A stretch of 64,000 nucleotides of DNA, taken from IMG/VR virus record IMGVR_UViG_3300035130_000336, positions 9,075 through 73,074 of that record, one strand, 5' to 3'. Below, one piece after another: positions 44,801 to 63,370 of the stretch; positions within the stretch are counted from its first letter, which is position 1, and each line of letters starts with the position of its first letter. The position numbers were made by a program, and so were the translations under genes. The DNA is from a virus. Taxonomy: Duplodnaviria > Caudoviricetes. The notes under the pieces were generated by a model. That model saw only the letters and a program-made list of their open reading frames with translations. It made no database searches and was not told where the DNA came from.

Positions 44801-46447
44801 TTAACTCAGAAATGGAAAGGTTTCACATTAGCGACGGCTGCATTACCGTATCAGATGGGTAATATAATGGGTGACGGGATATCAACATTGGTTTTTGATC
44901 CTCATGCATATACTTATTTACCGCAATCCAGCCGTGTGGCGATGAGAATATTTTATCCTCAAGGCATCGGTAAAAATATTACTCTGAATAGTTTTGAACA
45001 GAGATTATACGATGTTGCTTTGCAAAAAGACGTTGCTCGAAGTGGAATGACATCCGAACTCAGATATGGGATTTTAAAAAGTTTGTCCGAAAAATATAAA
45101 ACGGCATCGGAATATCGGGAATCCTTGATGCGGCTTTCCATATTGGCACATCAGTTGGACAGGGTAGATAAAGGTGAAGCGGTACAAAATCTGGCTGGAT
45201 TGAATTTAGAAGGATTGGATAATGAATCAGCGGCTGGGAAAGTCGCGAGAGAAGTATTGGTTGATTATTTGGCCGTACCAAGATCATATCAATTGTTTCT
45301 CAGCCGGGGATTGATGCCTTTTGTACGTTTTCATGAAGGGAATTTTCGCAATTATGCACGGGCGATCACGAGAAATGAAGGAACGCATAAAGCATTAAAA
45401 ACCGCAACGCCGATCCTTGCCGCTTATGCGGCGCAATGGGCGTATAATAATTTGTCTGAAAATAAAAAAGACATGGAAATGCAATTGCCCGATTATCTTC
45501 GCGAACGGTGGCATCTGAATTTATTTAAAAACAAGGATGGCAATGTAGTCGTTTGGGCACCGCAACAACCGGTTGACATGGCGATGAGTTGGCTTGGTTT
45601 GGATAAAATGAATAAAATCGCTTCAGATATGAAAGCTGGAAGAATTACTCCGAAACAGGCTGCCGGAGAATTTTGGGATGCCATACGCGGCGGGGCATCC
45701 GAAAATATCGGTTCTTTAATGAATCCGCTGATTCAAGCGTGGCAAGGGTTGCAATCAAACGAAGATCCATTTACTCATCGTAAAATAATGCCGGATGCGG
45801 TACATAGGGAAGGGATATTCAGCAAATATGGAAAACGATATACTATTGGTTATTTAGGGGAAAAACTCATTACGCCGATCGCTCAATATACCCGTACCAA
45901 AAAAGGCGGCGATCCGACGAAAAATCCGTTATTGGATTGGTTAACGGAAGGACCGTTTAATATAAAAAGAGCTTTCGGTATTTATGAAGTAAATCCATTG
46001 ACTCAAAAATTATCGGAACATTTCGAAGTTGCGGGACCGATAGAGGCGGCGAATGAATATTATCGAACGAAGTTTTATGATATTCTGGATGAATACGGAG
46101 ATAATGTAAGTGAGGGTTTGAAAGCCCGGAAAAATAATGTGGCATTAACCGATAAACAACAAAGGGCGATTAATGATGTTGAAGCGTTGGTGAAGACCGC
46201 CAAAGAAAACGGTTTCGAAGGGTTGCAATTGAATACATGGTTCAAAAACAATACCGCGCAGAGAAAAATAATTGATTCCGAATTGCGGAATACGACCGAT
46301 GAAAACAAAAGAAAAGAGTTGATCAACAGAAAAAAGGAATTGTTAACTGGTAGTCAGGTTGAGTATATGAAAAAGGTGCCTAAAACGGGACAGAGAAAAT
46401 ACGTAACTGAAATGCAGCGGCGTAGTGCCATGCCGGGGAATGAATAA
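41804..46447 (+). CDS. Large internal virion / ejection protein (polyvalent-protein-like)
   Basis: 1547 aa; duplicated N-terminal 'YTV.EFA..LK..(Y/H)P.Y...D...LV.KA..KKP'; last gene of structural block. Confidence 0.65.
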
Positions 46448-46712
46448 CATGATACATCCTGAAGTGCAGGGAGCATTAATAGGCGTGGGAGCGATGTCTA
46501 TCGCCCATATAGGTAAAATGGGATTTGATTATTTAATGCTGAAATTAAATAAAAATGGAAAAAATAAAAATGGATTTTGCAAAGAACATTACAGGCTTGT
46601 CGAAACTCTTAACAAATTGGAAGAACATTATAAGGAAGAAAAACAAATTTTTTTATATAAAGAAGCCATAAAACAGGTTAATAAAGAAATCTTAAATGGT
46701 GCTTTGAAATAA
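46425..46712 (+). CDS. Small membrane-associated protein (holin-like position)
   Basis: Weakly hydrophobic N-terminus followed by charged tail. Confidence 0.35.
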
Positions 46713-46818
46713 AATATTGGGGGGATGATGGATAAACCCGGCTGGATACTCGCGGCGATAGGAACGGTTTTCGTAATGTGGATGTTACTGTATCTGATTT
46801 ACTATTGCAAGTGATAGC

Positions 46819-47199
46819 ATGAAAATTCGAAATCTTTCGGAATTGAATAAATATCCTATTCCGGAACATATAAAGCAACAGATCGTTGATGCATACCGAA
46901 AAAAAAAGAATGGAGATAATACTCCCCATTCCGTTACCGACATGGAACCGGCTTCTCGAAATGAATCCGTTTCAGCGTATTCGGGTGAGACATTTGATTC
47001 ACCTGTTCATATCGATATTTATTCTACCCGAAAGCAAAAGACCGACATTGATAACATATCGGGGAAAGCCGCAATCGACGGAATCGTTAATTGCGGAATA
47101 CTTGAAACTGATTCGCCCGACCAAATCGAAAGCTATCAGGTCCATAAGCCGGAAATATCGCCGGTAGAACAGACGGTGATAGTGATTGAGGAGGTATGA
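46819..47199 (+). CDS. rusA: RusA-like Holliday junction resolvase
   Basis: 'DIDNISGKAAIDGIVNCGILETDS..QI' matches RusA D-x-D-N..K...D......DD motif. Confidence 0.75.
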   Translation: MKIRNLSELNKYPIPEHIKQQIVDAYRKKKNGDNTPHSVTDMEPASRNESVSAYSGETFDSPVHIDIYSTRKQKTDIDNISGKAAIDGIVNCGILETDSPDQIESYQVHKPEISPVEQTVIVIEEV

Positions 47200-47202
47200 T
47201 GC

Positions 47203-48240
47203 GCCTTTGCTTCGCACGACCAAACGATACTTAGCTTTGCTTTTGCTGGGCTAAACACAACAATGCCCCACATTGCCTTTGCAAAACAATGCATTGCATT
47301 ACTTCACTTTGCCTTTGCAACACAATACGCAACACTACCATGCTCTGCCTATGCTCTACTTTACATAACATGACCGCACTTTGCCTTTGCATTACATTAC
47401 ATTACCACGCCTTTACATTACCATACTCAACACCACCATGCTCCGCCTATGCTTCACACGCCGCTACTTCGCTTCGCTTTGCCTTTGCATTACTTCACTA
47501 CACTATACGGTGCTTTTGCATTACTCCACTACACCTGACTCCGCATTGCCTTTGCAACACTATACATTGAATAGCCTTTCCAATGCATCGCAATACTTAA
47601 CTATGCTGATCCTTTGCTAGCACAGCTTCACCATACACTACTTTTGCTTTGTCGTACTGAACGGAACTTTGCCCAACCATTGCAACACATGGCTATACTG
47701 CACAATACAATACCTTCGCATGGCGATACGAAACAAGGCTTCACACTTCCTTTGCGTCGCTAAACCACGCAAAACTATGCCTTTGCCGTATTGAACGGAA
47801 CTTCGCTTTGCCTTTGCGGCGTAAAACTACGCTTCACTCAGCTTCTGCTTTACGCAACGAAACAGCACTATGCTTTACCTTTGCCATACAGCACATCACT
47901 TCGCTTTTGCTTGGCCACTCCTAACTATTCTGTGCCTGTGCCACACGATACAACGCCTCGCCAAGCCTGTGCTTTGCTCCACCGTATCCGGCCCTGCTTT
48001 ACCAAACCATTACAACACAGTGCAGTACAAGGCTATGCCTGTGCTTAACTATACTAGACTTTGCCTGTGCCAAACATGACGAGACTTTGCCTGTGCTTAA
48101 CTTTACTTTGCTTAACGGCACCATACCACGCCTGTGCTCTACTAAACATCACTGTACTTTGCCTGTGCCATACACCACCCTGCAATACATGGTATTAGCG
48201 ATGTTTGACCGCACCGGGCATTCCTATACTTTGGATTGCC
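47203..48240 (-). repeat. Pentamer-grammar array A: + strand (RC-NNN)n punctuated by GCCTTT/GCCTGT; candidate guide-RNA array directly downstream of the RAMP gene
   Basis: e.g. gcctgtgc tct actaa acatc actgt acttt gcctgtgc (48130-48168); degenerate over the last ~50 nt. Confidence 0.9.
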
Positions 48241-48241
48241 T

Positions 48242-48877
48242 TTAGCTTTTTAAATAATTGACGGTAAAGCGGCCTTTTCCACTGTTTCGCCACTGTCCGA
48301 TGCCGCGCAATTGGCCATAATCAAGCCATTCGCGTACGAACTTTTCATGGCTGTCACTTAAACACTGAATTTCCAATTCGCAGGTGCTTCCTGCGGGGAC
48401 GGTTTCACTGTTCGCCAAAGCAATTCTCTCGCCCTGTGCGGTATTTCCGCGAAGAGGACGTTGACAGTTTCCCATCTTGCCTTTTACTTTGATGGCAATC
48501 ATTCTCGGGTGAACGAAAATACATCCATCGATCACCTTTTTATACGCTCTTAATTCTCCCTTCTTTCCTTTACCCGATTCGGATTTTGACGCCTTATACG
48601 TTTCGAATCCCTCACAGCGCATGAGAGCGGCGCAGGTATCCTTGAAAAACCCCTTCCACTGGTAATCCCAAAAGATGGGATTACTATCCTTATCGCGTGG
48701 AAAAATAGTCATTGCTTTTTCAACAACTTCTTCTATCCCGATCGCTTCCACTTCTTCTTCCCGCGACAGCTTATCGGGAGCCTTGCTTGCTATATACTCC
48801 GCATGGATTTCTTTTGACGGACTTGCTGTTCCCAACACTTCTTCTTGGAAAGTGATTTTTACTTTGAGCGTTTTCAT
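48242..48877 (-). CDS. Stand-alone Cas7-like RAMP-superfamily protein
   Basis: RAMP motif order: beta1 'LKVKITFQEEVLGT', 'PIFWDYQWKGFFK' (cf. PxIPGSSLKG), 'ETVPAGSTCELEI' (cf. E.VPxGxxFxFxI), C-terminal G-rich loop 'GIGQWRNSGKGRF'. Confidence 0.8.
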   Translation of the reverse strand: MKTLKVKITFQEEVLGTASPSKEIHAEYIASKAPDKLSREEEVEAIGIEEVVEKAMTIFPRDKDSNPIFWDYQWKGFFKDTCAALMRCEGFETYKASKSESGKGKKGELRAYKKVIDGCIFVHPRMIAIKVKGKMGNCQRPLRGNTAQGERIALANSETVPAGSTCELEIQCLSDSHEKFVREWLDYGQLRGIGQWRNSGKGRFTVNYLKS

Positions 48878-48911
48878 ACTGAACCTTTCTGATAAAATTG
48901 AGGGTTGATTT

Positions 48912-49030
48912 ACCTTTGCATAACTTCACAACACATTGTTTTGCCTTTGCGTTGCCAAACTATTCCTTGCTCAACTCTGCCGTTGCAAAACACCACATTG
49001 CAATACAGCACTTTACAATTGCGATACATC
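48912..49030 (-). repeat. Pentamer-grammar array B (short), immediately upstream of the RAMP gene
   Basis: acctttgc ata acttc acaac acatt gtttt gcctttgc gtt gccaa actat... Confidence 0.8.
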
Positions 49031-49162
49031 TCCTTTCTGTTTGAACCATTTGGTTTTTTCTTTATAATATTTTCTACTCTCCTCTCTTGTTTTATTTTTT
49101 GTTTCTCTATACATTTTGTCACGGGTTTTTCTTATGAATCTCATTACTTTGAAATTTTTCAT
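49013..49162 (-). CDS. Small basic helical protein (49 aa) between arrays B and C, not in the ORF track
   Basis: MKNFKVMRFIRKTRDKMYRETKNKTREESRKYYKEKTKWFKQKGDVSQL translated by hand; occupies the non-repeat gap. Confidence 0.5.
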   Translation of the reverse strand: MKNFKVMRFIRKTRDKMYRETKNKTREESRKYYKEKTKWFKQKGDVSQL

Positions 49163-49196
49163 AATTGATATTTTTTTTGAGATAATAAAAGAAACC

Positions 49197-50716
49197 GTGC
49201 TGTTCCATACGATACGTTACATCGACCTGCTTTTGCAACACTTAACTACGCAAATCCATACAAAGCTTTTGCGGGGCTAGACTAGACATCACAGTACCCC
49301 TGCCTCGCTGCGCGTTACATTACTATGCATTACCCCTGCCCCGCTGCGCGTCACATTGCTATGCTTTACCTTTGTTTTGCTGGGCAATACGTTACCGTGC
49401 GTTGCCATGCCTGTACGGAACTTTACTTAACTCTACTTAGCCTTTGCTCCACAAAACATAACTTCACTTTGCCATTCCTGTGCTACACAAGACACAACCT
49501 TACTCTACCATGCCTTTCCTTTGCTTGGTTATACTGTACCATGCCATACCTGCGCAATACCCCACAATACCGAACTGTACAATGCTACGCCTTAACAATG
49601 CCAAACAGCGCTTTGGCATGCATTGCCGGTGCTGTGCCAAACTACTCAACGCTTTACCATCGCCATGCCAAGCTTTGCCGTTCCTTTGCCGCACTAAACG
49701 CCGCGATACCATGCCTGTGCATAACCATGCATAACTGTGCTCTGCCTGTGCATTACTGAACAACATACCGCTTTGCCTTACCTTTGCAGAACAATGCTTC
49801 GCTATGTATTGCCTGTGCTCCACAATGCATCACAATACTTCACATTGCTTCGCCTTTGCCATACAGCGACATGCGATACTCCGCCTTTCCTTTGCAAAAC
49901 ACAGCGTCACAACGCATAGCCTATGCTTCACGAAACAGCACGTCACAAAACTATGCCTTTGCGTCACTAAACTACACAGTGCCTGTGCTTTACTAAACAT
50001 CACTTTGCTTTTGCATAACAGCACATCACTACGCCTGTGCTTCACCTTACTTCACTCTACATTGCCTGTGCCGCGCAATACATAGCGAAACCAGACCATG
50101 CCTGTGCATAACGTTACCAAACTCTGCTGTGCCTGTGCATTACCTTACCTCACTTCGCTTTACCATGCCAGCGCACCACGGTACAGCACTATGCCTGTGC
50201 ATCACGCTACCAAACAATACATTGTCATGCATGTGCATCACATTACTTCACTTCCCACCGCCTGTGCCTTACTAAACTCCACTCTACAGTGCCTGTGCAT
50301 CACTTGACTTCGCTCTACCTCGCTTTGCCTGTGCATTACATCACCACACAGTGCTTTGCCGGTGCTTCACGTTACAACACTATACACTACATATCCTAAC
50401 CATTTCTTTGCCAAACAGTGCATCACCATACAATGCCGGTGCCATACATTGCTATACCATGCATCGCCTGTGCTTTGCTTCACTCCACCTCGCTTTGCCT
50501 GTGCTTGGCTTAACCACGCTCTGTCTGTGCATTGCATCACGGCACACAACGGGACAGCACTACGCCTGTGCATCACTAAACTATACTGTGCCTGTGCTTG
50601 GCTTAACTAATCTGTGCCTGTGCATCACTTCGCCGCACATAGTTCTGCTGGTGCTTTGTATTACTATACTATGCATCGCCTGTGCATGACAGTACATCAC
50701 ATTGCTTTGCCTCTGT
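49197..50716 (-). repeat. Pentamer-grammar array C (longest, ~1.5 kb)
   Basis: Continuous RC-NNN register with GCCTGT/GCCTTT/GCCGGT punctuation. Confidence 0.92.
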
Positions 50717-50874
50717 ATTGATTCTCTGTTTTTGATACCCTCCCGAATTGATTTTTTGGTTCTCAGAGGCTACAAAAAGACTACAATTGGCCCTGATGAT
50801 AGTATATTTAAGGATAAAATTACTCATGATGGAAAGCAGGTTTTTAAAAAAAGTGCCCAAATTCGTTAAAAAAA

Positions 50875-50929
50875 CGGAGGGGAGAGGATTTGAACCTCCG
50901 GTAGAGTTGCCCCTACGCAGGTTTAGCAA
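50875..50929 (-). other. attP core: 3' half of a tRNA-Ser(GCT)
   Basis: Minus strand TTGCTAA-ACCTG-CGTAGGGGCAACTCTAC-CGGAGGTTCAAATCCTCT-CCCCTCCG = anticodon loop, long variable arm, T-arm, acceptor 3' strand; 5' half absent; ~40 nt from the integrase stop. Confidence 0.85.
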
Positions 50930-50970
50930 CTCTACGGCGGAGTAGGTTTCACCCAATAAAACCAATGGTT

Positions 50971-52023
50971 CTATGCCGTCTTTCGCAGCGAAAAGGCTAC
51001 CTGAGGGCTACATAATACGTCATTTATGATATCAATCTGACGCCGGTTGTCGTAAACATGCTGCGTTTTCGGACTCGTTTGAATGCCCATTTTCTTTAAC
51101 ATCTCATAGGTGAATCCCTGCCGCAACAGATACGTCTCCGCGCAATGCTTTAAATCGTGCCAGTTGAAATCATAAATCCCCACCTGTTTTAAAACTGTAT
51201 CGAAATGCCATCGGGGATCGCTGATTTTTTTCCAGACGACCTTTCCGTTTTTCCGTTCCAACATGGGAAAGAGCCACGGACAATCCTTCGGCAACGAATG
51301 GGCGTACCGGACAAAATCCATGTCGATATTCGGCAGGATCGTTACCCGGATTTTATCTTTCGTTTTCTTCGCCTGAAAACGAACGACCCATCGTGATACT
51401 TCCATCTGAAGATTTTTTCGCTGTAAATTGAAAAGATCCCCCTTGCGGATGGGATTAATAAGGGAGAATTTTACCGCTTCGAGAATGTGGGATTTATGTA
51501 AGGTCAAATAATTGATCAGGGCGTTTTTTTCGCCGTCGGAGAGAATCCGATTGCGCTCGTTGCCTTTCCTGATCCTCCATTTTCTGACCGTGGTTCGACC
51601 GCACCGCCCGGTTTCATAAGCGAAATTGCAGATTGACCGGACGACGATTTTATAATTATTGACGGTATTGACCGCAAGGCCGCTCCCTTCGAGATTTCCG
51701 ACATACCGGCTGTAACCGGCGGCGAAAATCTGCTTGTCGGGAAACAGACGACCCAATTCCTTAATCGATCGGTCGTAACACGCCTGATTAAATCCCCCGC
51801 GTCCGCGCTCGTTCAAATAAAGTTCCGCGCATTTGGAAAATCGTAACGATGTCAAAGAACAATCTCCCGTCAATGAACGGGCTTCGATCTGATTTTTTAA
51901 ATGCTGATCGAAATTATCCGTCTTGCGGCGGAAGTGACGCGCCTTTCCCGCGCCGTTTCGGTATGCCCGGTCAACGTAATACCACCGAACCCCATTTGCA
52001 TCATTCTTATACCAGACTCGCAT
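50971..52023 (-). CDS. int: Tyrosine recombinase / integrase
   Basis: GGGAGGAG RBS before ATG 52023; SAM-like domain 'NTVNNY'; 'IRKGDL', 'WHDLKH', 'MGIQT...HVYD'. Confidence 0.85.
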   Translation of the reverse strand: MRVWYKNDANGVRWYYVDRAYRNGAGKARHFRRKTDNFDQHLKNQIEARSLTGDCSLTSLRFSKCAELYLNERGRGGFNQACYDRSIKELGRLFPDKQIFAAGYSRYVGNLEGSGLAVNTVNNYKIVVRSICNFAYETGRCGRTTVRKWRIRKGNERNRILSDGEKNALINYLTLHKSHILEAVKFSLINPIRKGDLFNLQRKNLQMEVSRWVVRFQAKKTKDKIRVTILPNIDMDFVRYAHSLPKDCPWLFPMLERKNGKVVWKKISDPRWHFDTVLKQVGIYDFNWHDLKHCAETYLLRQGFTYEMLKKMGIQTSPKTQHVYDNRRQIDIINDVLCSPQVAFSLRKTA

Positions 52024-52094
52024 ATCTCCTCCCTTTTCAGGGAGGGTATCTGAGTATAATATAGTATCAGGTAGGGGAAAAGAGGGTATATTTT

Positions 52095-52367
52095 CTACGC
52101 TTTTACGCATACCGCATTATAGATGATTTTATTGGCGTATTCCGGACAGAATTCAGGCGTTTTCGACATATCGTATCGATTGCCCTGTTCGTATTTCACG
52201 CAAGTGTTTTTGAGGGGACACTCTTCACAGGTCGGAATATCTTTTTTCCACCGGTCGGCGTATTCCCGGCAGCCGCCGAGCATACATCGCGGACTCCACT
52301 TATGCGGGACGGCGGAGGGACACCCTTCACACTCTTTTACGGCTTTGCCGCAAATATAGAGGCTCAT
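52095..52367 (-). CDS. Cys-rich hypothetical protein
   Basis: Multiple CxxC; overlaps xis stop. Confidence 0.55.
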   Translation of the reverse strand: MSLYICGKAVKECEGCPSAVPHKWSPRCMLGGCREYADRWKKDIPTCEECPLKNTCVKYEQGNRYDMSKTPEFCPEYANKIIYNAVCVKA

Positions 52368-52567
52368 TTTTTTCTTCCTCTCTCCGGCAATAAAAACTCT
52401 CCGCCGGTCAGTCGTTTTTCAATATCGGCACGCCTGAACCGATAAATTCCCCCGATTTTTACCATACCGGGCAGACGTCGTAACGCCATGTATTTTTCGA
52501 TGAACTTTTTACTGACGTTCAACCTCTCGCTCAGCTCGTCGGGAGTCATCAGCGAATCTTTCGTCAT
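52364..52567 (-). CDS. xis: Excisionase-like HTH protein
   Basis: 'LMTPDELSERLNVS...LPGMVKIGGIYRFRRADIE'; AAGGAG RBS. Confidence 0.8.
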   Translation of the reverse strand: MTKDSLMTPDELSERLNVSKKFIEKYMALRRLPGMVKIGGIYRFRRADIEKRLTGGEFLLPERGRKK

Positions 52568-52578
52568 ACGCGCTCCTT

Positions 52579-53079
52579 GCCTTTGCATCACTGAACATTA
52601 CTTTGCATTGCCATGCCTGTGCTTGACTACGCCTTACTTCGCCTGTGCTATACTAAACTTCACATCGCATCGCCTGTGCTACACCAAACAACACTGCGCA
52701 CTGCCTGTGCCTAACTCAACAATGCCAAACCGTGCCTGTGCTTAACAAAACAACACCATGCTAATCCTGTGCTTCACATAACTGAACAGCACTATGCATT
52801 GCCTGTGCCGCGCAATACACCACCTCGCTTTGCCTGTGCTGGGCCAAACATTACCCTGCCTTGCCTGTGCATAACGAAACTCCACCGCGCATTACCTGTG
52901 CATTACCTTACCAAACCTTACATCACCATGCCTGTGCAAAACTTGACATTGCTTCACGATGCCTGTGCTTAACAAAACATGTCATAACAATGCATTGCCT
53001 ATGCTTAACCAAACCGTGCTGTACCTGTGCTTGACAATACATCACCCCACGGTGCCTATGCATTACCTTACCAAACACC
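52579..53079 (-). repeat. Pentamer-grammar array D, 16 punctuation motifs, units of 26/31/36 nt
   Basis: Motif starts at 52579, 52615, 52641, 52672...; fills the space between the SSB-like stop codon and the xis RBS. Confidence 0.95.
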
Positions 53080-53080
53080 G

Positions 53081-53509
53081 TTAAAACGGCAGATCGGAAT
53101 CCGCTGGGGGAGCGTTGTTCTGGTCCGCCAGATGTTTCGCTTCACGGCACACGTAATCATCGATTTTGTTCTTGTCGGGATAGATGCCGTTTTTATCCAC
53201 TTCGATACCGATTTTTGCTTTACCGACACGACCTTCGAAATCGAAGGCTCTGAGGCTTCCCGTTTCGTATTTCGCCAGCAGCCCGAAAGCATCGCATGCA
53301 TGGCGGAGTTTCGCGGGCATCTCATCAAGCAGATAGTCATAGATTCTGTTGACGACGCGATCCCCCAACCAGACGGCAATAGTAAGCCGGATCATCTCCT
53401 TGTCGTTTTTACTTACCTGATCGATCGCTTCGATCACTTCGACGTCGTAAACGCCTTTATCGATGATTTTTCTCGGTAGATCTTTTTCCGAATAGGTTTT
53501 GAACCTCAT
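53081..53509 (-). CDS. SSB-like protein (DUF669-like)
   Basis: 'KGVYDVEVIEA...SKNDKEMIRL'; acidic C-terminal 'DSDLPF'. Confidence 0.7.
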   Translation of the reverse strand: MRFKTYSEKDLPRKIIDKGVYDVEVIEAIDQVSKNDKEMIRLTIAVWLGDRVVNRIYDYLLDEMPAKLRHACDAFGLLAKYETGSLRAFDFEGRVGKAKIGIEVDKNGIYPDKNKIDDYVCREAKHLADQNNAPPADSDLPF

Positions 53510-54405
53510 TTCTTTTTTCCGCCTTTCAATTTGCCGTTTAACCATTCTATTGTTTTCGCCGCCTGATCGGCGGTAAGTTCGTTCCAGTTGTCCGCTCCCG
53601 CCTTGGTCAATACTTTCGTCGTTTCCTCAGGGGTGATTTTAAGGAGCGCCACCATCCGTTCGATTTCCTCGACATCTTCATCCGACGCGATCGTGATAGG
53701 GTTTACATTCGATTCAATATTCTCCCTGCCGTACCGTTTCGAAAACTCCTCGTAATCGAGGGAAAAGGTTTCCTGATCGGGAAAACCCGCGAGGCGCGTT
53801 TTATAAACGATCGCCGTCGGCGGATAGACGGTGCCGCGTTTGATCACCCGCAATCCCAGATCAAGCTCGTAAACGAGTTTGTCCCATACGTCGGGACACT
53901 TTCCTGTCTCTTCCCGCTGCCCGGTTCGGGGATTGGTACCCCATTCCGACGTCTCATGCGCGATGAACCAGATGTTCATATCAAGTTTCATACACCAATT
54001 GACAAGTCGGCGCATTTGCGCGATCGCCGGTTTTTTCGACGCGCCAAAGACATCACGTTCGGCGAGACGCTCCGCCTCGTTGGCGATGCATGTCTGGTAG
54101 ACTTTCGTGATTGAATCGATCACCAGCGTACCGTAATTATGTTTTTCGGTGGCAAGCGACTGCATCTCGGTAACGATCGCCGAAAGGTCAAGCGCCCCTT
54201 CTTCCGGTCCCATGTACGCGCCTCCCGCCGCTTTGAGGCGTTTCTGGTATTCCACTCCATCCGCTCCCCCTTCGGTATCGATATAATACGGCCTTGGGAA
54301 CGTGAGAGAAAACCATGTTTTTCCCACTCCACTCGCTCCGAAAAGAAGCCCTTTCGCCTTACCCTGTTTTACTTCTTCAGGATCTTTCGCTTTCAATTTG
54401 CTCAT
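53506..54405 (-). CDS. Sak4-like AAA ATPase (single-strand annealing)
   Basis: GGAGG RBS; Walker A 'GASGVGKT', 'IDTEGG', 'TLVIDSIT', 'FIAHE'; adjacent to SSB-like gene. Confidence 0.8.
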   Translation of the reverse strand: MSKLKAKDPEEVKQGKAKGLLFGASGVGKTWFSLTFPRPYYIDTEGGADGVEYQKRLKAAGGAYMGPEEGALDLSAIVTEMQSLATEKHNYGTLVIDSITKVYQTCIANEAERLAERDVFGASKKPAIAQMRRLVNWCMKLDMNIWFIAHETSEWGTNPRTGQREETGKCPDVWDKLVYELDLGLRVIKRGTVYPPTAIVYKTRLAGFPDQETFSLDYEEFSKRYGRENIESNVNPITIASDEDVEEIERMVALLKITPEETTKVLTKAGADNWNELTADQAAKTIEWLNGKLKGGKKK

Positions 54406-54628
54406 CAAAAACCTCCATTGATTGACAATTAGCGGTGCAGCGGTTATGTTCCCGGTCCCACGGCGCACCGCATTCGGGACATGTTTCTTTCACGATGTCA
54501 TTGCCGTTGCGTCGACGGCGGTCGCGCGACGGAACGGGCGTCATATCCTGCTGGCCCAATGCTCTTCCACCGGTTTTCTGCGGTGTTCGCCCCATTGCTC
54601 CATTATCCGTGCGATCGCCGCGTCATAA

Positions 54629-55393
54629 TCAAACGGTTCTTCCGATTTTTCTGAGGACTCCGGCAACGACGTCTTCCGTTGCGGCAATTTGTTCTCGTTT
54701 CTCATCATCGGTCATGCTCACTTGTTTCACCGGTTCCTTTTCCGGTGCCGGTTGCATCCTTCCCCGTATTTTGTCGATCACCCAATTGCGGATAACCTTG
54801 TTGTGATCCTGATACTGTTTGCGTTTCTTCGGGTTATTGGTCAGATATTCATCGAGATATTTTATACATGCTTTAACAAACCGTTCGCCAAGTTCTTTCT
54901 TCAACCGCTCATACTCTTCATCGGTCAGATAGACGGTATCGAGATATTGAACGGTAATCCGGGCTTTCCTTTTTTTTCGCGGTACGGGTTTCTGTTTCTC
55001 TTCCTCTTTTTCCTTTATAGGGACCGGCGGTTTCGCCGTTTTTTTCAATCGTTTGGTCGCGGCGGCGCGTCTTTTCGCTTTGTCGGCAAGCGTTGCCTGT
55101 GCCTTCGGGGAGACATATACCCCTTTTTCCGTTTCACGACAGATTCCGTTTTTTATCGCATCCTTGAGAATCGCCTCGTGTTCCTCAGGTGTTACGCCGC
55201 ATTTTTTCCGGAACAGTTCGGCAAATGGTCCCCGCAGATCAACCGTTCCCGTCATTGTTTTATACGCGCTTTGCCAGAATCGTATTAACCATGTCAATCC
55301 ATGTTCATGCATTGCAATCATTGATTCAACCGTATCATTGAATGTCACTTCAAGCGGAAAAACGTCAAGTCCTTCCTTTTTCGGACGCGCCAT
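54629..55393 (-). CDS. Phage replication initiator (DUF4373-like N-terminus)
   Basis: 'MARPKKEGLDVFPLEV'; C-terminal 'YQDHNKVIRNW'. Confidence 0.7.
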   Translation of the reverse strand: MARPKKEGLDVFPLEVTFNDTVESMIAMHEHGLTWLIRFWQSAYKTMTGTVDLRGPFAELFRKKCGVTPEEHEAILKDAIKNGICRETEKGVYVSPKAQATLADKAKRRAAATKRLKKTAKPPVPIKEKEEEKQKPVPRKKRKARITVQYLDTVYLTDEEYERLKKELGERFVKACIKYLDEYLTNNPKKRKQYQDHNKVIRNWVIDKIRGRMQPAPEKEPVKQVSMTDDEKREQIAATEDVVAGVLRKIGRTV

Positions 55394-56175
55394 ACACTAT
55401 GCAGTTTATCCAATCAGACTTTCCATGTATCTTTTTCCGTTATGTCTCAATAACAGCTGACTTTCTTTATAATGAATGCATCTGCCTTTACCGCATTCAT
55501 GCGCTTCCGGGAAGAGACTTTGGCCTGAGGCATGATAGTAACTTCTCTCAAGAGACAAACAAAGTGGTAATGGACCTTCATTGTGCAGATAAGCACACGG
55601 TTTGCAAGTCTGATTAAGAATGTCTTTCTCTTCCACGCGATGCCGCCTTTCTTGGTTCACATTTTTATTGATTTTTAAATTGAATGAAAGTAGAATTAAA
55701 AAAAGGATTATTATATAAACAATTAAACAAAGAACAATCATCAGAAAGAGTTTCATGAGAGTAAGTTTTCCTGAACAGTTAAGCGCATCAGCACGAAGAC
55801 GGAAAGCACTTGTCTTCTCACTGAGAGGCGGTTGATTATATGCGCGAACCAGTTTATTCCGATTTGCTTTCATCACTTGCCTTCTCTTGTCCTTGCGAAA
55901 TTCTGATATTCCATCCGCCCTCAGGCGCGGCGAATGTTTGCACGGAAAAGCCAAGCATGATTGCACGATGTCTGATGGCTTCCGTAGTATTTTTTTTGAA
56001 TTCGTGGAGATATTTGTCCGATTTGCCCGCGACATGGTTGATTTTATCGTCAAAGAGAGGCTTGCGCCCCTTTCGCTTCATTTTTACCGGGACGCCGGTT
56101 CTTATCTCCGCCATTCGAAAATCCGACTTTCCATTTTTATTGAAAAAAAAGTTGAAAAAAAAATTGAAAATAAAG

Positions 56176-56205
56176 TTGACTGACCTATCAATTAAAGAAT
56201 ATATT
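56176..56205 (+). promoter_or_regulatory. Putative rightward sigma70-type promoter
   Basis: TTGACT-N18-TATATT with upstream A-tracts. Confidence 0.5.
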
Positions 56206-56309
56206 AGGATACAAAAAGGGTATAAAAGCCTCACGGCTTAGGAATTTCGCGGTTCCGCCCTTTTTCTCCAAGGGTGACGGTCCTGCCAGACCGTCACTCA
56301 AATAATTAG

Positions 56310-56339
56310 ATTATATTATTTTAACAATAAATAAGTCAA
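56310..56339 (-). promoter_or_regulatory. Putative leftward sigma70-type promoter for the early operon
   Basis: Minus strand TTGACT-N18-TATAAT. Confidence 0.6.
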
Positions 56340-56399
56340 CAAAAAAAGTAAAAAATTATCCATTTTTAATTTTTTGTTTTATTCCCTAAAGGAGGAATC

Positions 56400-57134
56400 A
56401 TGGCGGAATTAGTCAGCAGTACCGATAGACTGTTTGAATTGTTAAAAGAAAATCCGGAAGGACTTACTCTTGAAGAATTAAAGGCGCGTTTTGGCCATAG
56501 TAGTACATCCAGTACCTACTCGACGATCAAACGCGCACGGGTAAAATTTCCACAATTTGATTTCATTGCCGATAAAAATGGAAGATATATAATGCAGCGA
56601 AACGATGCCGATTCCTCTCCGGAACCGGAGTTATCCGCAAGCAATAAGGAAAATAATGGTGACTTAACAAAAAGAATCGCCCGCTCACTGAAAGACGGAA
56701 TAAGTAAATCAAACATACTAAAAGATCTTTTATTGGAGTCGAATGAAGGAATAAATAAAAATATTCTTGTGTCGGCTTTAAAATTAAAAAGCAATGCTCA
56801 GCTTTATACTTTAATACATACGATTCGACAGAAATTGGAAGGTCAGCATGAAATTGTTTTATTCGATGATATATATAAATGTGTTTCTAAAAAAAGAAGA
56901 TCAGCCGGAACTTTTCAATCGCCTAAAATAACTGATATCCCTTCCGATCCTGCTACTGATAGTGACATCATATTACCACAAAAGTTAGTTGAACAACTGA
57001 AATCTCTTTCGCCTCAGGATGCCAAAGAGGTGATTGATTTATTAAAGAAAGCGAAATTCTACAAAGAGTGCGCCGCCGCGCTCATTATCGCTTCCAAAGA
57101 AGCAAGCGCTTTGAATTCAACCCTGTTTTTATAA
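56400..57134 (+). CDS. Putative regulator with two winged-HTH-like repeats
   Basis: AAGGAGG RBS; 'LLKENPEGLTLEEL' and 'LLLESNEGINKNIL' repeats. Confidence 0.6.
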   Translation: MAELVSSTDRLFELLKENPEGLTLEELKARFGHSSTSSTYSTIKRARVKFPQFDFIADKNGRYIMQRNDADSSPEPELSASNKENNGDLTKRIARSLKDGISKSNILKDLLLESNEGINKNILVSALKLKSNAQLYTLIHTIRQKLEGQHEIVLFDDIYKCVSKKRRSAGTFQSPKITDIPSDPATDSDIILPQKLVEQLKSLSPQDAKEVIDLLKKAKFYKECAAALIIASKEASALNSTLFL

Positions 57135-57165
57135 TATTCAATTCACTTCTTATTAAGGAGCATCA

Positions 57166-57606
57166 ATGAATCAAGTTCGAATGGCAGTTCGAAAGGCAAC
57201 GGAAGAAGGCATGGAAAGATTACTTAAGATTTTGAAAGCCGATCCGACCATTTATCGATCGGCGATCGTGCTGGCGAACAAAATGCATTGTAAACCTTCC
57301 CGTATCAGACGCCTTATCAAATTAATGCGGTATAACGGCATTGGTATCATGTCGGTATACGGAGGATATATTCTGTCCTCTCATGCGAAACAAAAAGACG
57401 ATGTACATTTTCTCCGAATGTGTTACGGACACTATGTTTCCGATTACATGGCTTATAAAGCGGCGGAAAAAGATATTTTCAAAAGATGGAAAACGGTGGA
57501 AGATCAGCGGAATTTGAAATTGTTGGTCTCGCCAATATCGGTTAATTTATATGGATCGAGACAATACCAATTGCTATCGGATATTTCACAAAAGTTATTG
57601 GCATGA
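57166..57606 (+). CDS. Putative HTH DNA-binding protein
   Basis: AAGGAG RBS; 'LANKMHCKPSRIRRLIKLMR..G..I....GGY'. Confidence 0.6.
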   Translation: MNQVRMAVRKATEEGMERLLKILKADPTIYRSAIVLANKMHCKPSRIRRLIKLMRYNGIGIMSVYGGYILSSHAKQKDDVHFLRMCYGHYVSDYMAYKAAEKDIFKRWKTVEDQRNLKLLVSPISVNLYGSRQYQLLSDISQKLLA

Positions 57607-57722
57607 TGAAAAAAATAGGCGCACTGAGTACCACCGTGTAAGGTGTTGATCCAAATGGGGAGAGTGGCTTTTGCATACGTCCAAATGGTTAGCCGACAAG
57701 CGGGTGAAAGGTGCGCCGAATA

Positions 57723-57968
57723 ATGAATTTATGTAACAAAGATTGTGGTAATTGTCCGATAATTAATCACGAAAACAATAGAATGATCACGTTTATACTT
57801 AATAGTCTTATAGAAACCCTTGGAGAAGATAAAGTGTATCCTATTGTTGAAGCGGCTTGTCCTAATTTAACATGCTGTTTCGATTGTAAAATCGATGATT
57901 TTTGTCATGTAAAAGGATGTGAAATAGTAACGGCGGTTAAAAATAAATATGGAAAAGCAACGCCATAA
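57723..57968 (+). CDS. Cys-rich hypothetical protein
   Basis: CxxxCxxC and CCxxC clusters. Confidence 0.55.
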   Translation: MNLCNKDCGNCPIINHENNRMITFILNSLIETLGEDKVYPIVEAACPNLTCCFDCKIDDFCHVKGCEIVTAVKNKYGKATP

Positions 57969-58387
57969 TGCTTTTCCAAATCAAAGCTTCTTATTTCTGT
58001 GCTGGCGGTGAAATAATAGATGATTGTGTTATTGATAACGCACCGATTATTCAGTATATGAAAGGATGGTCTTATAAACAAGTATATGAATATTGTCAAC
58101 GTAAAAAATGGGAATTTAAAATGACACCAGATATTAAAAAAGCCGAATATATTGAGGATTATAAAATTCGATTTTTATTTGATAATGGTAAATCAGGAAT
58201 TGTCGATTTTACAAAATATATTAAACGTGGCGGAATCTTTAAAGAGTTGGAGAATATCGAATTTTTTAAAAACTTTTCGATTGATTCTGAGGTATTCGTA
58301 ATAAAATGGTGGGATAAAATTGATATCGCACCGGAAGAAATATATTCCGAAGCAACAGGTGAACTTTTACCTTCATGGATGGAATAA
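57968..58387 (+). CDS. DUF2442-like protein with an N-terminal extra domain
   Basis: 'YKIRFLFDNGKSGIVDF...GGIFKEL...F...IKW...DIAPEEIY'. Confidence 0.65.
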   Translation: MLFQIKASYFCAGGEIIDDCVIDNAPIIQYMKGWSYKQVYEYCQRKKWEFKMTPDIKKAEYIEDYKIRFLFDNGKSGIVDFTKYIKRGGIFKELENIEFFKNFSIDSEVFVIKWWDKIDIAPEEIYSEATGELLPSWME

Positions 58388-58418
58388 AAATATAATAAAG
58401 TCGATATATATCCGGAAT

Positions 58419-59063
58419 CTACAAATTCCAGACATAAATGATATTTTTCCGGGGATTCGTCGCACGACTGTATAACCAAGAAAATTGATACTCTTTATGT
58501 TTGACTTTCAGGATTTTCTTATTTCCATGAACGTTTTCATTCCCGACGACTATATATTGTTTGACATTTTTTAATATAAATTCTTCATCGATACCGTATA
58601 TATTGCCGCCGCGATCAGGTTCCGTTTCTTTATACTTATGGGTGACCCAGCAACCAATTACCGTTTCGGGCTTGTATTTTTTTATCGCATTAACCGCATC
58701 AAGGGCGATAATGTCCTCAGGATATTTAGTTAGGGGTTGACCGGTACTAATATAATATGCCTTGACATCGGAACGTTCCTGACATTTTGAATCCGTCGCG
58801 GGAATTTTCAGATAACGTGCCAATGCTCCATGTCCCGCCCCGATTTCAATAGTGGAAGCGATATTTATTCTCTCTAATAACCATTCCGCCAGTTCAATGG
58901 TCGGAAAACAGTAAATGCCGTTAAAATGTCCATACAGCATTAAATCTTCCGGCGGCAATGCCGCGTAAATATACGCCGGAAGAACCTTTAATAAATTGTT
59001 CTCCAATAAAATATCATCTAGGTATGAAATGTCTTTAGGAGGGAGAATTATCATAGTGTTCAT
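58419..59063 (-). CDS. Putative SAM-dependent methyltransferase-like protein
   Basis: 'TIEIGAGHGAL'. Confidence 0.6.
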   Translation of the reverse strand: MNTMIILPPKDISYLDDILLENNLLKVLPAYIYAALPPEDLMLYGHFNGIYCFPTIELAEWLLERINIASTIEIGAGHGALARYLKIPATDSKCQERSDVKAYYISTGQPLTKYPEDIIALDAVNAIKKYKPETVIGCWVTHKYKETEPDRGGNIYGIDEEFILKNVKQYIVVGNENVHGNKKILKVKHKEYQFSWLYSRATNPRKNIIYVWNL

Positions 59064-59194
59064 TTCTGCAAAAAAGGGGGCGAAGCAGCAAGCGGAAAGG
59101 AACTGCTGTTTGTCAATATTTCACCGTCGTGAAAAATCTATCGCCCTTAATAAAATTCCTTTGTTGTATTATCAATTAAATTGCTATTAACTAT

Positions 59195-59563
59195 TCACAA
59201 CATACCCTCATGAGTAAAATCGGGCAGTCCATCATCGGGACAATGAAATAAATGCAAACATTGAGGATGAATATTTACATAATTTTTTTCATTGGGTAAG
59301 ATCTGTATTGCCTTTTTGAATCTACCGATGAAAATATTTTTTACCTCTTTTAGATCATTCCATGAAGGAAGTTTACCTTTTTTATTAAATGCACACGATA
59401 CATGCTGCCACCATTTTCCATCATGGTTTTCTTCCGTAACGATAACCGACATACCATCACGACGGCGGCGATAAACTCTTTGCATTAAATTCTGTATTCC
59501 CCAATCTTCATAAGTGGAAGGAAGAATGGAGATTTTATCCGACAATCTCCAATCGGAAATCAT
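59195..59563 (-). CDS. Conserved phage hypothetical protein
   Basis: 'WQHVS...LPSW.DL..VK..FIG....AIQILP....YVNIHP.CLHL' motif typical of a widespread phage family. Confidence 0.7.
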   Translation of the reverse strand: MISDWRLSDKISILPSTYEDWGIQNLMQRVYRRRRDGMSVIVTEENHDGKWWQHVSCAFNKKGKLPSWNDLKEVKNIFIGRFKKAIQILPNEKNYVNIHPQCLHLFHCPDDGLPDFTHEGML

Positions 59564-59793
59564 GTATTATCCGTCATTACAGTATTGGAGAGAATTACAA
59601 TCGGGGTGAGTTTTTTGGCACGTTCTGTTTTTGTTTGAACGTAATAAATTTTCAGATCGCGATTCAATTTCAATTCATCGCCGAAAATAAGAATCTTTTC
59701 GCCATTTCTTAATTGATTTAAATTTTCTTCACTTAATCCGATATATAAAGTTGGATGATAACCTGATGAAAGTGAATGTTTTTTTTCAGGCAT
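59560..59793 (-). CDS. Hypothetical protein, paralog of 59802-60026
   Basis: 'IGLSEENLNQLRNGEKILI'. Confidence 0.6.
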   Translation of the reverse strand: MPEKKHSLSSGYHPTLYIGLSEENLNQLRNGEKILIFGDELKLNRDLKIYYVQTKTERAKKLTPIVILSNTVMTDNT

Positions 59794-59801
59794 AAAACGG
59801 T

Positions 59802-60026
59802 TTACAATTCTTTGTGAATTACGGTATCGGGATCGATATAAGGTGAAAGAATCATGGCAATTGATTGTTCCGTTTTGCCGTACATGATGAAAATATCATG
59901 ATTTAGTTTTACCGGCGCACCTTCGATAAGGATCGGTTGACCGTCCTTTAATCGACGAATATTTTCTTCACTTAATCCTAATCCCAAAACAGGACCATTT
60001 TTTCCTTGAAAGGTGAATTTAACCAT
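59802..60026 (-). CDS. Hypothetical protein, paralog of 59560-59793
   Basis: 'LGLSEENIRRLKDGQPILI'. Confidence 0.65.
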   Translation of the reverse strand: MVKFTFQGKNGPVLGLGLSEENIRRLKDGQPILIEGAPVKLNHDIFIMYGKTEQSIAMILSPYIDPDTVIHKEL

Positions 60027-60219
60027 ATCGGAGTTTTTCCCGTTTCAACATCTTTCTTAAGTTTTCCGGCCCGATCTTTAACAAGAAGTTTTTAAGGGAT
60101 AATGGAATTCTTATCGTATAGCTGACAGTGGGATCATTCGGATCACCACTCACGGTCGGTTTACATCCTCTTTGTTCAGGGGGAATGATACGTCCACGTC
60201 CGGGACGGTTTTTATTCAT
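60019..60219 (-). CDS. Small ribbon-helix-helix-like protein
   Basis: GAGG RBS; 'YTIRIPLSLKNFL'. Confidence 0.5.
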   Translation of the reverse strand: MNKNRPGRGRIIPPEQRGCKPTVSGDPNDPTVSYTIRIPLSLKNFLLKIGPENLRKMLKREKLRYG

Positions 60220-60281
60220 AATAAACCTCGTTTAATCATTGCTTTTTAAAAATATATAATTATTATTGAATATTTTCAAGA

Positions 60282-61187
60282 TTAATTGTTCAATAATTTT
60301 ATTAATTTAAAAAACGCTTTTTCCTTTTTTACCGCACCATCATAAAAGATGGAGGATTGGATTTGTATTTGGTGATCGTTTAAATTGGCCATCCGTTTTG
60401 TTTTTCGGGTGGTCCGATACTGATCTATCCAAATGAGATAGGTCACCAACAAGGTATAAGCATTTTTCTCACTGCTTTCATCGAACCATTTTTTTATTAG
60501 TTCGATCTGATTTTTCTTTTTGGAAGAATCATAACAGTTTTTTCCAAAAATTTTTTTCATTACGATATCAAACATTTCATCATCGATGCTTTTTTGAAAT
60601 AGAGCATTGAGTTTGCGGTGTATCGATTCTATCTGTTTAATAATCGATATACCAGTACCGTTAATGGAAATGGTAAGCGGCAATATAGCACCTGAGAGAG
60701 ATACCAGCATCAGTTTCGCATTGTTTTTCAGATGCCGCATATGTCTCATTGAACCGTCATGCGTCGTTTGAAACAGGAGATAACAATGTAACAGTTCATG
60801 GGGAGGGGGAGCCAGTTTAATGGTGTAGGGAAGGCGAATAATAACGAAAATACATTTACCTTCGAACAATGATCCGGCGGTATCATATTCGGCACCGGGG
60901 ATCTTTTTTAAAAACTCATCAACGAAATTGAATGCCGATGAATTTTGCAATACGTCGGTTTTCTCTTCTACCGTTTCAAGAAAATCATCCGTATCATCCC
61001 GGAAGACTCCCCAAGCCGTAGTAGGAACTTTTTTATTGTTTTGAAACGAGCAAAGCTGACGCTTGGATACGCTCCACATCAAATTTGTTTTTTTTACCGC
61101 AGCCGACCACGACGAGACACCTTTTATTGAGATGCCGATTTTGTTCCAAGGCGTAACCATTGTTTTTTTCATACTATCTCCGATCAA
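60282..61187 (-). CDS. DUF932/DUF945-like phage protein
   Basis: 'PW..IG', 'L.WSV.KR.L', 'VLQN..AF.F', 'YDTAGSL..G', 'LL...THDGS'. Confidence 0.7.
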   Translation of the reverse strand: MIGDSMKKTMVTPWNKIGISIKGVSSWSAAVKKTNLMWSVSKRQLCSFQNNKKVPTTAWGVFRDDTDDFLETVEEKTDVLQNSSAFNFVDEFLKKIPGAEYDTAGSLFEGKCIFVIIRLPYTIKLAPPPHELLHCYLLFQTTHDGSMRHMRHLKNNAKLMLVSLSGAILPLTISINGTGISIIKQIESIHRKLNALFQKSIDDEMFDIVMKKIFGKNCYDSSKKKNQIELIKKWFDESSEKNAYTLLVTYLIWIDQYRTTRKTKRMANLNDHQIQIQSSIFYDGAVKKEKAFFKLIKLLNN

Positions 61188-61271
61188 TTAATTGTTTCCA
61201 TAAATATACCTAATAAACCATACGATTGCAATATATTTATTATGTATAACAATCGTCTTATTATAAAACCA

Positions 61272-61298
61272 ATAAAAAAGCCCGTATAAACGGGCTTT
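61272..61298 (-). terminator. Rho-independent terminator
   Basis: Minus strand AAAGCCCGT-TTAT-ACGGGCTTTTTTAT after the lipoprotein gene. Confidence 0.75.
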
Positions 61299-61317
61299 AA
61301 TGGAAGATTAAATGGAA

Positions 61318-61710
61318 TTAATCGGGAACAATGGCGGTAATTATGTACTCATCACCGGGATCGCATTCCGCATCATCAAAGATCCGGATATACCAGTTAC
61401 CATAATACCATAACGGGGAATGCCACATATAACCGCTTCCTTTGCGGACATAGCAGTTAATAAGTATGGTATCAGGTAACATAACAAAAAAATCTTCATG
61501 CCCGAGTAATATGATTTCCCAATAATCCTTTCCCTCGACTTTATCGGAGGAGTAAAGAATACCGCTCTTTACAATCGGACGTATCTCTCCCGGTTCTCCT
61601 TGTTCTCCTTGCAATCCTTGTGGTCCTTGCGGACCTGCCGGACCCGTTGGCCCTCGAAGGCTGTTGCAGGAGAATAGACATAATAAAATTAAGATAACTG
61701 AAATTTTCAT
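61318..61710 (-). CDS. Lipoprotein with short collagen-like (GXY) repeat
   Basis: Signal peptide and lipobox 'LFSC'; 'GPTGPAGPQGPQGLQGEQGEPG'. Confidence 0.75.
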   Translation of the reverse strand: MKISVILILLCLFSCNSLRGPTGPAGPQGPQGLQGEQGEPGEIRPIVKSGILYSSDKVEGKDYWEIILLGHEDFFVMLPDTILINCYVRKGSGYMWHSPLWYYGNWYIRIFDDAECDPGDEYIITAIVPD

Positions 61711-62120: not shown

Positions 62121-62152
62121 GATGGGACTCCTTTTGTTAAAGTTAAAATAGT

Positions 62153-62186: not shown

Positions 62187-62198
62187 CTGCTTTTCATA

Positions 62199-62998
62199 GC
62201 AATACAACTCCATACTGCACCTCGCATTGCCTGTGCATAACATTACCACGTTTTACTATGCTTTGCCTAAGCCGTACGCAGCGGTACTTTACTTTGCCTG
62301 TGCGGAACTGTACTATGCTTTGCCCCGCTTTGCCTAAGCTATACATTACTATGCCTTACTATGCCTTGCCTGAGCTATACATCACAGTGCTAATTTATGC
62401 CTGTGCTTCGCTATTCTTCACTACGCCTAGCCTTTACATCGCGCTACCGCACGTTACAATGCCTATGCCAAACGGTACTGTTCCAGACTATGCCTATGCT
62501 ATACAATACTTCACTAAACAATGCCTATGCCAAACGGAGCGTAACTATACTCCTCTGTGCTATTGCCATGCAATACTATACACTGCATTACCTATGCCAT
62601 ACTTCCCCGTGCTTCACATTGCTTTTGCTTTGCCATGCATGACAAAGCTATACCCCGTTTTGCTTTTGCCTAGCCGCGTTCCACTTTGCCTAACCTGTGC
62701 AGTGTTTCACACCACCTTTCTACGCACCGCCATTGCTGTACTACACAGTGCTCTGCTTCACCTTGCCTTTACTGTACATTGCTAAACTTCACTGTACTTC
62801 ACCATGCCTTTTCAGTGCCAAACAATTCGATACTGAACTATGCCTGTGCTTTACTGAACTCTACAAAACTTCACATTGCCTTTGCTTAGCATCACCTATC
62901 TTCACAATGCTTCGCCTTTGCTTTGCTTGGAAACACGGGGCCAAACTAAACCGTGCCTTTGCAGTGACAAGCGCTGCATTGCTTTTCAATGCATTAGC
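62199..62998 (-). repeat. Pentamer-grammar array E
   Basis: e.g. gcctatgc tat acaat acttc actaa acaat gcctatgc; punctuation GCCTGT/GCCTAT/GCCTAA/GCCTTT. Confidence 0.9.
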
Positions 62999-63085
62999 GA
63001 AAATAATTATAAATTTTCCCTGCCTTTTTCCTTATCCTCATCCGCCTGATACAATGAAGGCAGTGAATCGGGACAGGGAAAATTT

Positions 63086-63370
63086 ACTTTGCTCAAGGCA
63101 TGCCATTGCAGGGCTCGACAGCACATAACAAAAGTATGCAATGCTATGCCTTTGCCATACACTACATGGCCTAACTACGCTTTGCTTTTGCACGGCGCAA
63201 CATGGCCCAACTGCACTATGCCTTTACAACACAATACATTGCTATACTTGGCATTACCTTTGCTTTGCATTGCTTAACATTACCCAGCTATAGCGTGCCA
63301 TTGCATCACATCACTATACTAAGCTGCGCTTTTGCTTTGCAATGCGTAACAAGGCCCAACTACGCCATGG
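63086..63370 (-). repeat. Pentamer-grammar array F
   Basis: e.g. gcctttgc cat acact acatg gccta actac gcttt gcttttgc. Confidence 0.85.

Follow-up and report, generated by a model that had tools for sequence, protein, structure and literature searches.

The window, the whole stretch of 64,000 nucleotides that we analysed, spans positions 9,075 to 73,074 of IMG/VR record IMGVR_UViG_3300035130_000336, a 73,074-base contig with an 18-base terminal overlap that closes into a circle of 73,056 bp. Portal, major head, integrase, xis, Sak4-like and replisome-organizer genes mark the genome as that of a phage or provirus. A DNA methyltransferase gene (20001-20870, plus strand; phrog_67, E=4e-71) sits at a boundary between the stretch 1-20000, with 28-40% G+C, and the structural gene block, with 36-51% G+C. 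Within a leftward row of early genes lies a block of short repeats, array D (52581..53079, minus strand), placed between a 154-aa ORF upstream (53081..53545, minus) and a xis-like HTH_17 gene (52364..52567, minus), with a tyrosine integrase gene beyond (50971..52110, minus). One edge of the array lies within 2-5 nt of the stop codon (53081-53083) that ends the 154-aa ORF, and at the other edge the first handle abuts an AAGGAG ribosome-binding site (52573-52578) ahead of the xis-like ATG (52565-52567), the likely start being the ATG at 52567. The initial annotation had set the array between the stop codon of an SSB-like gene and the xis ribosome-binding site; both edges stand, whereas the SSB-like label itself corresponds to a weak match (phrog_378, E=0.0045).

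Our parsing of array D revealed a repeat of exact arithmetic. Read on the plus strand, the array contains 16 CCTNTGC marks, all between 52580 and 53061, with starts at 52580, 52616, 52642, 52673, 52704, 52735, 52766, 52802, 52833, 52864, 52895, 52931, 52962, 52998, 53024 and 53055. The 15 spacings between them are 31 nt (nine cases), 36 nt (four) and 26 nt (two), all equal to 1 modulo 5, and the sequence between the marks resolves into 77 pentamers without remainder. This bears out the earlier description of 16 motifs spaced 26, 31 or 36 nt apart, in all 15 spacings, and of units made of a hexamer plus 4-6 pentamers; the motif positions given there lie one base to the left of ours, which reflects only the choice of first base for the motif. 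In the RNA sense, the 16 units each consist of a GCANAG handle and 4-6 G-Y-N-N-N pentamers. On the plus strand the terminal base is C in 77/77 filler pentamers (G in the RNA sense) and the fourth is a purine in 75 of the 77 (A 47, G 28, T 2), while the first three positions are variable and G-poor, with G at 3, 11 and 5 of 77. The logo of the 31-nt units reads GCAcAG GCA.. Gc... GTg.. GT.t. GT... in the RNA sense, and the conserved unit junction, GCANAG with the GCA that follows it, is 9 nt long and leaves the following unit one base out of register.

The mark is strongly over-represented and strand-biased. CCTNTGC occurs 94 times in the window, where 100 dinucleotide-preserving shuffles give 16.8 +/- 4.1 and none reaches 94; in the whole 73-kb genome the plus strand has 90 occurrences and the minus strand 6. 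Out-of-register G-Y dinucleotides are mildly depleted (73 vs 86 expected, P=0.02). The variable positions of array D are strongly C-poor in the RNA sense and asymmetric between strands, which is odd for guides taken from targets on both strands. A slippage microsatellite or satellite DNA was considered and ruled out, as adjacent units are 65-90% alike yet the register bases are invariant. Neither strand of array D, nor its single units, folds better than shuffled sequence (z -0.7 to +1.3), as expected for a protein-coated scaffold. The units carry no structured 3' tail, and an Rfam scan of 46000-64000 at E<=1 returned two sub-threshold chance matches and no ribozyme.

The setting of the array within the early row provides some indication of how it may be expressed. 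The best promoter-like site, TTGACT-18-TATAAT (56310..56339, minus), is a consensus match only and lies upstream of the row, and no minus-strand terminator is predicted between 56339 and 52364; the promoter and terminator scans as such were not enriched over shuffles (14 vs 17.1 and 11 vs 9.8). The shared orientation, the terminator-free stretch and the tight fit between stop codon and ribosome-binding site suggest that array D may be co-transcribed with the early genes. Any control of xis translation by the array would be speculation.

Array D is one of five blocks that share one build and together make up 4,189 nt, or 5.7% of the genome, with about 135 units in total. All five lie on one strand and are co-oriented with the surrounding minus-strand genes. 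Array A (47205..48200, minus; 21 handles, 90% covered by NNNRC pentamers) is directly downstream, and the short array B (48914..49025, minus) directly upstream, of a gene for a 211-aa protein that we call Vipr-like after the protein of Escherichia phage SUSP1 discussed below. Array C (49230..50710, minus; 1.5 kb, 28 handles) occupies the space between the integrase gene and the Vipr-like gene, and array E (62230..63330, minus; 1.1 kb, 17 handles) lies at a distance of 13 kb from that gene, within another row of minus-strand genes. Coverage by NNNRC pentamers is 83-94% per block, reaching 94% in array D, compared with 38% in a control stretch, and no 200-nt window on the opposite strand attains the period-5 threshold. 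In-register runs peak at 6 and 7 pentamers, units have 5-7 and rarely 8 repeats, and the arrays contain no true runs of at least 10 pentamers. The scale of the arrays is roughly ten times the median length in relatives (462 nt), and both their size and their dispersal are unusual; among five related phage records checked, arrays at several loci occur only in this phage and its close relative.

Several smaller features accompany the blocks around the Vipr-like gene. An AT-rich segment of about 115 nt separates arrays B and C (49073-49190), where the close relative has about 10 nt, and promoter-like hexamers lie near this gap at 49041-49068 (plus strand) and 49122-49094 (minus strand). Through array B, just upstream of the Vipr-like gene, runs an ORF of 39 codons (48910-49029, minus) with a strong ribosome-binding site, AAGGAG; it probably arose by chance, the repeat being poor in stops. 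Two minus-strand hairpins resembling terminators, at 47042-47062 and 46907-46932, lie 140-300 nt beyond array A inside a convergent RusA-like gene, and could mark the end of a transcript covering the vipr-like gene and array.

The Vipr-like (RAMP-like) gene itself (48242..48877, minus) is flanked by arrays alone. It is the ORF to which the initial annotation referred as a RAMP gene 3.7 kb from array D, and a link between it and the arrays is supported both by the co-occurrence of gene and arrays and by weak RAMP matches. The ORF belongs to no Pfam or PHROG family. Its C-terminal G-loop, G-I-G-Q-W-R-N-S-G-K-G-R-F, follows a motif that is invariant in its family, G-x-G-Q-W-R-N-x-G-x-G-R-F, and the family is large: 7,922 of 8,000 scored candidates are homologues of about 200 aa, with 2,173 cluster representatives (E<=1e-3, 50% clustering). 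When a profile was built from 38 members, it picked up PDB Cas7 chains (E=0.0045) and Csm4 (E=0.025), with the matches lying in the last ~55 residues, a region of strand-helix-G-loop-strand. TIGR01903 cas5_csm4 is matched by 5/38 members (best E=0.016) and Pfam CRISPR_Cas6 weakly by 2/38, and a neighbouring ESM Atlas cluster has been auto-named RAMP superfamily. A second ORF of 211 aa, across the genome origin, proved unrelated.

Gene and arrays are joined by a tight two-way genomic link. A search of IMG/VR found a relative of the 211-aa protein encoded in 557/576 candidate stretches, and in the 80 of these loci kept for the array check a period-5 G array adjoins the gene on the same strand in every case (80/80). 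With a further 80 loci from bacterial genomes and MAGs, whose record titles point mostly to gut and rumen Clostridia, the array is present in 159/160 loci, with a median length of 462 nt and a maximum of 1,225 nt within the flanks examined. The arrays of these relatives have G at the first pentamer position in 89% and as the extra base in 79%, and their units likewise peak at 5-7 pentamers. In the reverse direction, a scan by RNA motif only, for a pair of junctions spaced 31 nt with G kept in phase, yielded 82 stretches; of 79 new loci, 70 carry the gene, on the same strand in 70/70 and at a median distance of 182 nt.

Comparison with a close relative provides a view of how the arrays change. 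The IMG/VR contig L001, an independent assembly with 90-92% identity across the shared region, has the same array blocks, which shows that they are not an assembly artefact. Across aligned array positions of the two phages, the register base (C; G in the RNA sense) differs at 6/281 sites (2%) and the adjacent purine (Y in the RNA sense) at 44/281 (16%), with the class kept in 35 of those 44. The three free positions differ at 79, 74 and 68 of 280 sites (24-28%), and third codon positions of neighbouring genes, at 8-17%, change more slowly than these. The fixed positions are conserved and the N positions hypervariable between close relatives, as in VIPR, and these rates agree with the earlier remark that the array is unlike a slippage microsatellite.

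Turnover also takes place at the level of whole units. The two phages share the six 5'-side units of array D at 92-97% identity, and in its middle entire units have been replaced or inserted. When 58 cleanly bounded units of the window were compared with the available loci of the relative, 18 had a counterpart at 90% identity or more and 11 at 80-90%, and 29 had none at 80%. The flanking genes of array D recur in contigs from four other public runs: a 2,977-nt contig in one run joins them while skipping 429 nt of array, and shorter contigs in two others hold different combinations of units. In an environmental relative from run X6 (compare window 52603-53033), the same xis and SSB-like genes enclose about three array units. 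The size of array D in nature thus spans about 3 to 16 units, and its near absence from one environmental relative indicates that it is dispensable. Searches of GenBank phages by blastn with array D and by tblastn with the portal protein gave no match.

A framework for these observations comes from VIPR. In the account of a June 2026 preprint, a phage-encoded Vipr protein of ~20 kDa, an early-branching RAMP, acts with vrRNAs of YNNGG repeats whose NN bases pair with DNA while every third target base is skipped, and the system silences competing mobile elements (10.64898/2026.04.26.720920). The Methods of the same preprint name the alternative repeats NNNGG, YNNNG and NNNNG, and 'staggered arrays', whose vrRNAs derive from positions shifted by 1 nt, appear in its text and in the fig. 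S18 legend; seven types are distinguished, with a vap gene 'typically' beside vipr and used for type definition (10.64898/2026.04.26.720920). The structural preprint describes one protomer per repeat in a filament with six subunits per turn, and in SUSP1 Vipr the reading of G1 by H17 and D177, of G2 by R138 and W178, and of Y3 partly by R179 (10.64898/2026.04.26.720927). A third preprint, of October 2026, reports solo vrRNAs, some aimed at the vipr genes of rivals, that can redirect VIPR to decoys (10.64898/2026.10.15.759431). Our literature search found no source beyond these three 2026 preprints.

We aligned the 211-aa family with the SUSP1 protein, whose locus in KT454805 has arrays at 27623-27966 and 29169-29231 around ALH47069. 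Profile-profile comparison by hhalign with the SUSP1 Vipr family covers the last 53 columns (E=1.9e-4, probability 48%), and our family profile aligns with the single protein ALH47069 from one end to the other across 170 columns (E=6e-4, probability 28%). HMM searches of each family with the other reach only 10-13 bits. Taken with the Cas7 and Csm4 matches, these weak sequence similarities, most of them in the C-terminal 55 residues, point weakly to the 211-aa protein being a RAMP/Vipr relative. In the alignments W178 and R179 of SUSP1 correspond to the invariant W196 and R197, and D177 to the invariant Q195. With the W/R pair kept and the aspartate replaced by glutamine, the protein would fit a repeat that retains G2 and Y3 and has lost the first G, G1.

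Beside the 211-aa gene there is no vap-like accessory gene. Since the preprint qualifies the position of vap with 'typically', this absence is not excluding of VIPR. In 48/60 gut-phage relatives (L013 and 47 others), a Cys-x-x-Cys-rich protein of about 139 aa is encoded upstream of the vipr-like gene on the same strand and is a candidate vap-like accessory; this genome has no homologue of that conserved upstream ORF.

The repeat anatomy, the conservation pattern and the link to the gene are direct observations, and with the published systems as a guide we consider it probable that array D, like the other blocks, is a VIPR-type guide-RNA array for the 211-aa protein. By analogy with those systems, we infer transcription of the array, processing at its junctions, protein binding with filament assembly, and DNA targeting. 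In this model, array D would be transcribed from the minus strand within the leftward early gene row, giving an RNA in which units of 26, 31 or 36 nt follow one another, each with the 9-nt junction followed by 4-6 G-Y-N-N-N pentamers. The 211-aa RAMP-like protein would bind one pentamer per protomer, holding G and Y, and the variable bases would be presented for gapped pairing with the DNA of competing mobile elements. A unit of about six pentamers would correspond to about one turn of the published filament. Such a protein and gapped-pairing mechanism has been demonstrated, as the preprints describe it, for Vipr and vrRNA of phage SUSP1 (10.64898/2026.04.26.720920; 10.64898/2026.04.26.720927).

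The initial annotation had likewise envisaged gapped guides, and that idea agrees with published VIPR; our searches showed no enrichment of gapped matches over controls. We searched for targets with the variable triplets at period 3, 4 or 5, in databases that were small or not clearly relevant. Neither the phage's own genome, with its arrays masked, nor the related loci (2.5-2.65 Mb) contained an excess of gapped matches over order-permuted controls. Exact 15-nt seeds from 1,246 guides gave 14 matches at each of periods 3 and 4, where triplet-preserving nulls gave 9.9 +/- 4.0 and 8.8 +/- 2.6 respectively, and a 2.7-fold match excess over within-triplet shuffles vanished once such a null was applied. 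There was no excess in a comparison of 901 guides with 206 vipr-like genes, and IMG/VR scans with one array D unit returned two matches at period 3, which is chance level and includes one in a giant-virus bin, and none at period 4. A single match deserves separate mention. When its triplets are joined without gaps, the minus-strand unit 47447-47482 has a contiguous 18-base match within vipr-like genes of other phages (L054, L086, L088 at 5285), in a stretch coding for KKKAVNE that is absent from the window's own gene. The close relative has an identical copy of this unit (L001 11509). The match has a nominal P=0.025 before correction for three periods and is accompanied by no family-wide trend.

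Other explanations of the arrays have to be weighed against guide production. The array RNA might bind the Vipr-like protein without guiding, either as a sponge or decoy that titrates the phage's own or a rival Vipr, or as a cis element that couples xis and int to the level of the Vipr-like protein. The very large arrays, with 4.2 kb and about 135 units against a 462-nt median in 160 relatives, would suit a titrating role, as would target searches without matches beyond chance, the C-poor bias of the variable positions, and the capacity of solo vrRNAs to redirect VIPR to decoys reported in the preprint (10.64898/2026.10.15.759431); the exact fit of array D into the gap from a stop codon to the ribosome-binding site of xis would suit a role in cis. 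We regard binding without guiding as improbable, as the free positions outpace synonymous sites and whole units turn over, more like a changing guide set than a binding platform, and as a relative with the same gene order has about three units, which argues that a cis role for xis is not essential. It might also be that only the arrays beside the Vipr-like gene work, arrays D and E being non-functional copies spread by recombination in which the repeat pattern is still present. Array D does lie 3.7 kb from the gene, arrays at several loci are confined to this phage and its close relative among the five records, and array D is nearly lost in one environmental relative. Its register, however, is the cleanest of all blocks (94% coverage, 15/15 spacings), the relative matches its six 5'-side units at 92-97% identity, it is co-oriented with its operon, and the G position changes at only about 2% of sites across the arrays as a whole, all of which makes non-functional copies a quite doubtful account.

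A role as duplex DNA is, in our judgement, very improbable indeed. The arrays would then be double-stranded, helically phased sites (31 bp being about three turns) for a replication, partition or compaction protein of the phage, and the geometry is suggestive in that one extra base per ~31 nt gives a mean period of 5.17 bp, half of a 10.3-bp helical repeat; replication genes (the replisome organizer and Sak4-like genes) are also nearby. Duplex sites would need neither a fixed orientation relative to the gene, yet arrays and gene are co-oriented in 80/80 and 70/70 loci, nor a depletion of G on one strand at the free positions, and the accompanying protein resembles an RNA-binding RAMP. Rho loading, primase sites, Chi-like sites and TRAP-like RNA binding were early ideas set aside when the link to the gene emerged.

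Returning to the reading as VIPR-type guide arrays, we tentatively put forward a possible, on balance unlikely, extension in which the system is a distinct VIPR dialect with one-turn guides, three free positions, contiguous-triplet targets and a library of about 135 guides held partly in an early operon. Guides would here be minimal, with 5-7 protomers, and chained head to tail by the 9-nt junction, whose G-G-C may nucleate assembly. The three free positions per pentamer would follow from the change of the G1-reading aspartate of the G-loop to glutamine. Target reading might then proceed in contiguous triplets, in place of the 2+1 gapped ones, and it is in this way that the conserved unit 47447-47482 makes its match. 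With part of the guide library placed beside xis and int, guide output could track the lysis-lysogeny programme.

VIPR has been described only in 2026 and, in the accessible parts of the preprints, for a few E. coli and Pseudomonas systems. The window offers an environmental-phage example of the less-studied YNNNG, staggered form, and the protein clade behind its arrays has more than 2,000 cluster representatives. The size of the arrays, their short units and their presence inside other operons raise the question of the minimum length of a VIPR guide, of how units are separated without a tail or ribozyme, and of whether three free positions per repeat alter the pairing code. Such arrays are, moreover, recognisable from raw sequence alone.

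The relation to known systems can be drawn at several distances. The backbone that Cas7 and crRNA form in class 1 CRISPR systems would offer a general likeness in the putative RAMP G-loop, in one protomer per short RNA segment and in periodically unpaired guide bases. In contrast to those systems, the locus lacks CRISPR repeats and spacers, has neither cas1, cas2 nor any further cas gene in its vicinity, and shows a period of 5 where CRISPR has 6. CRISPR-Cas in the sense of direct repeats of at least 23 nt, unique spacers and cas genes was ruled out, as the conserved element is 9 nt and no cas family was found among 10 ORFs scanned around the arrays. Closer to hand is type II VIPR as represented by SUSP1, which shares a phage-encoded RAMP-like protein of ~200 aa, co-oriented pentanucleotide arrays with fixed G/Y and variable positions, and the conserved W-R pair of the G-loop. 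Here the repeat is G-Y-N-N-N where SUSP1 has G-G-Y-N-N, units have 5-7 repeats instead of 9-16, a 9-nt junction takes the place of a pseudoknot tail of ~40 nt, about 135 units compare with 4 vrRNAs, no vap gene is present, and the proteins align confidently over only ~53 C-terminal columns. Membership of type II was ruled out on the absent tail, the short units, the missing vap gene and the differing repeat consensus.

Arrays D and E, lying away from a vipr gene, resemble the solo or orphan vrRNAs of the third preprint (10.64898/2026.10.15.759431), and the 18-nt match of one window unit in the vipr-like genes of other phages, a single weak match, is a further point of likeness; unlike the phages with solo vrRNAs, this phage has a vipr-like gene of its own. 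There is a likeness, too, to the YNNNG variants named in the VIPR preprint (10.64898/2026.04.26.720920), since the minus-strand (G-Y-N-N-N)n is YNNNG and lies beside the gene in the same orientation. The 'staggered arrays', as the text and legend of that preprint describe them, share with the arrays of this phage a shift of register by one base at each boundary, the end of one unit marking the start of the next.
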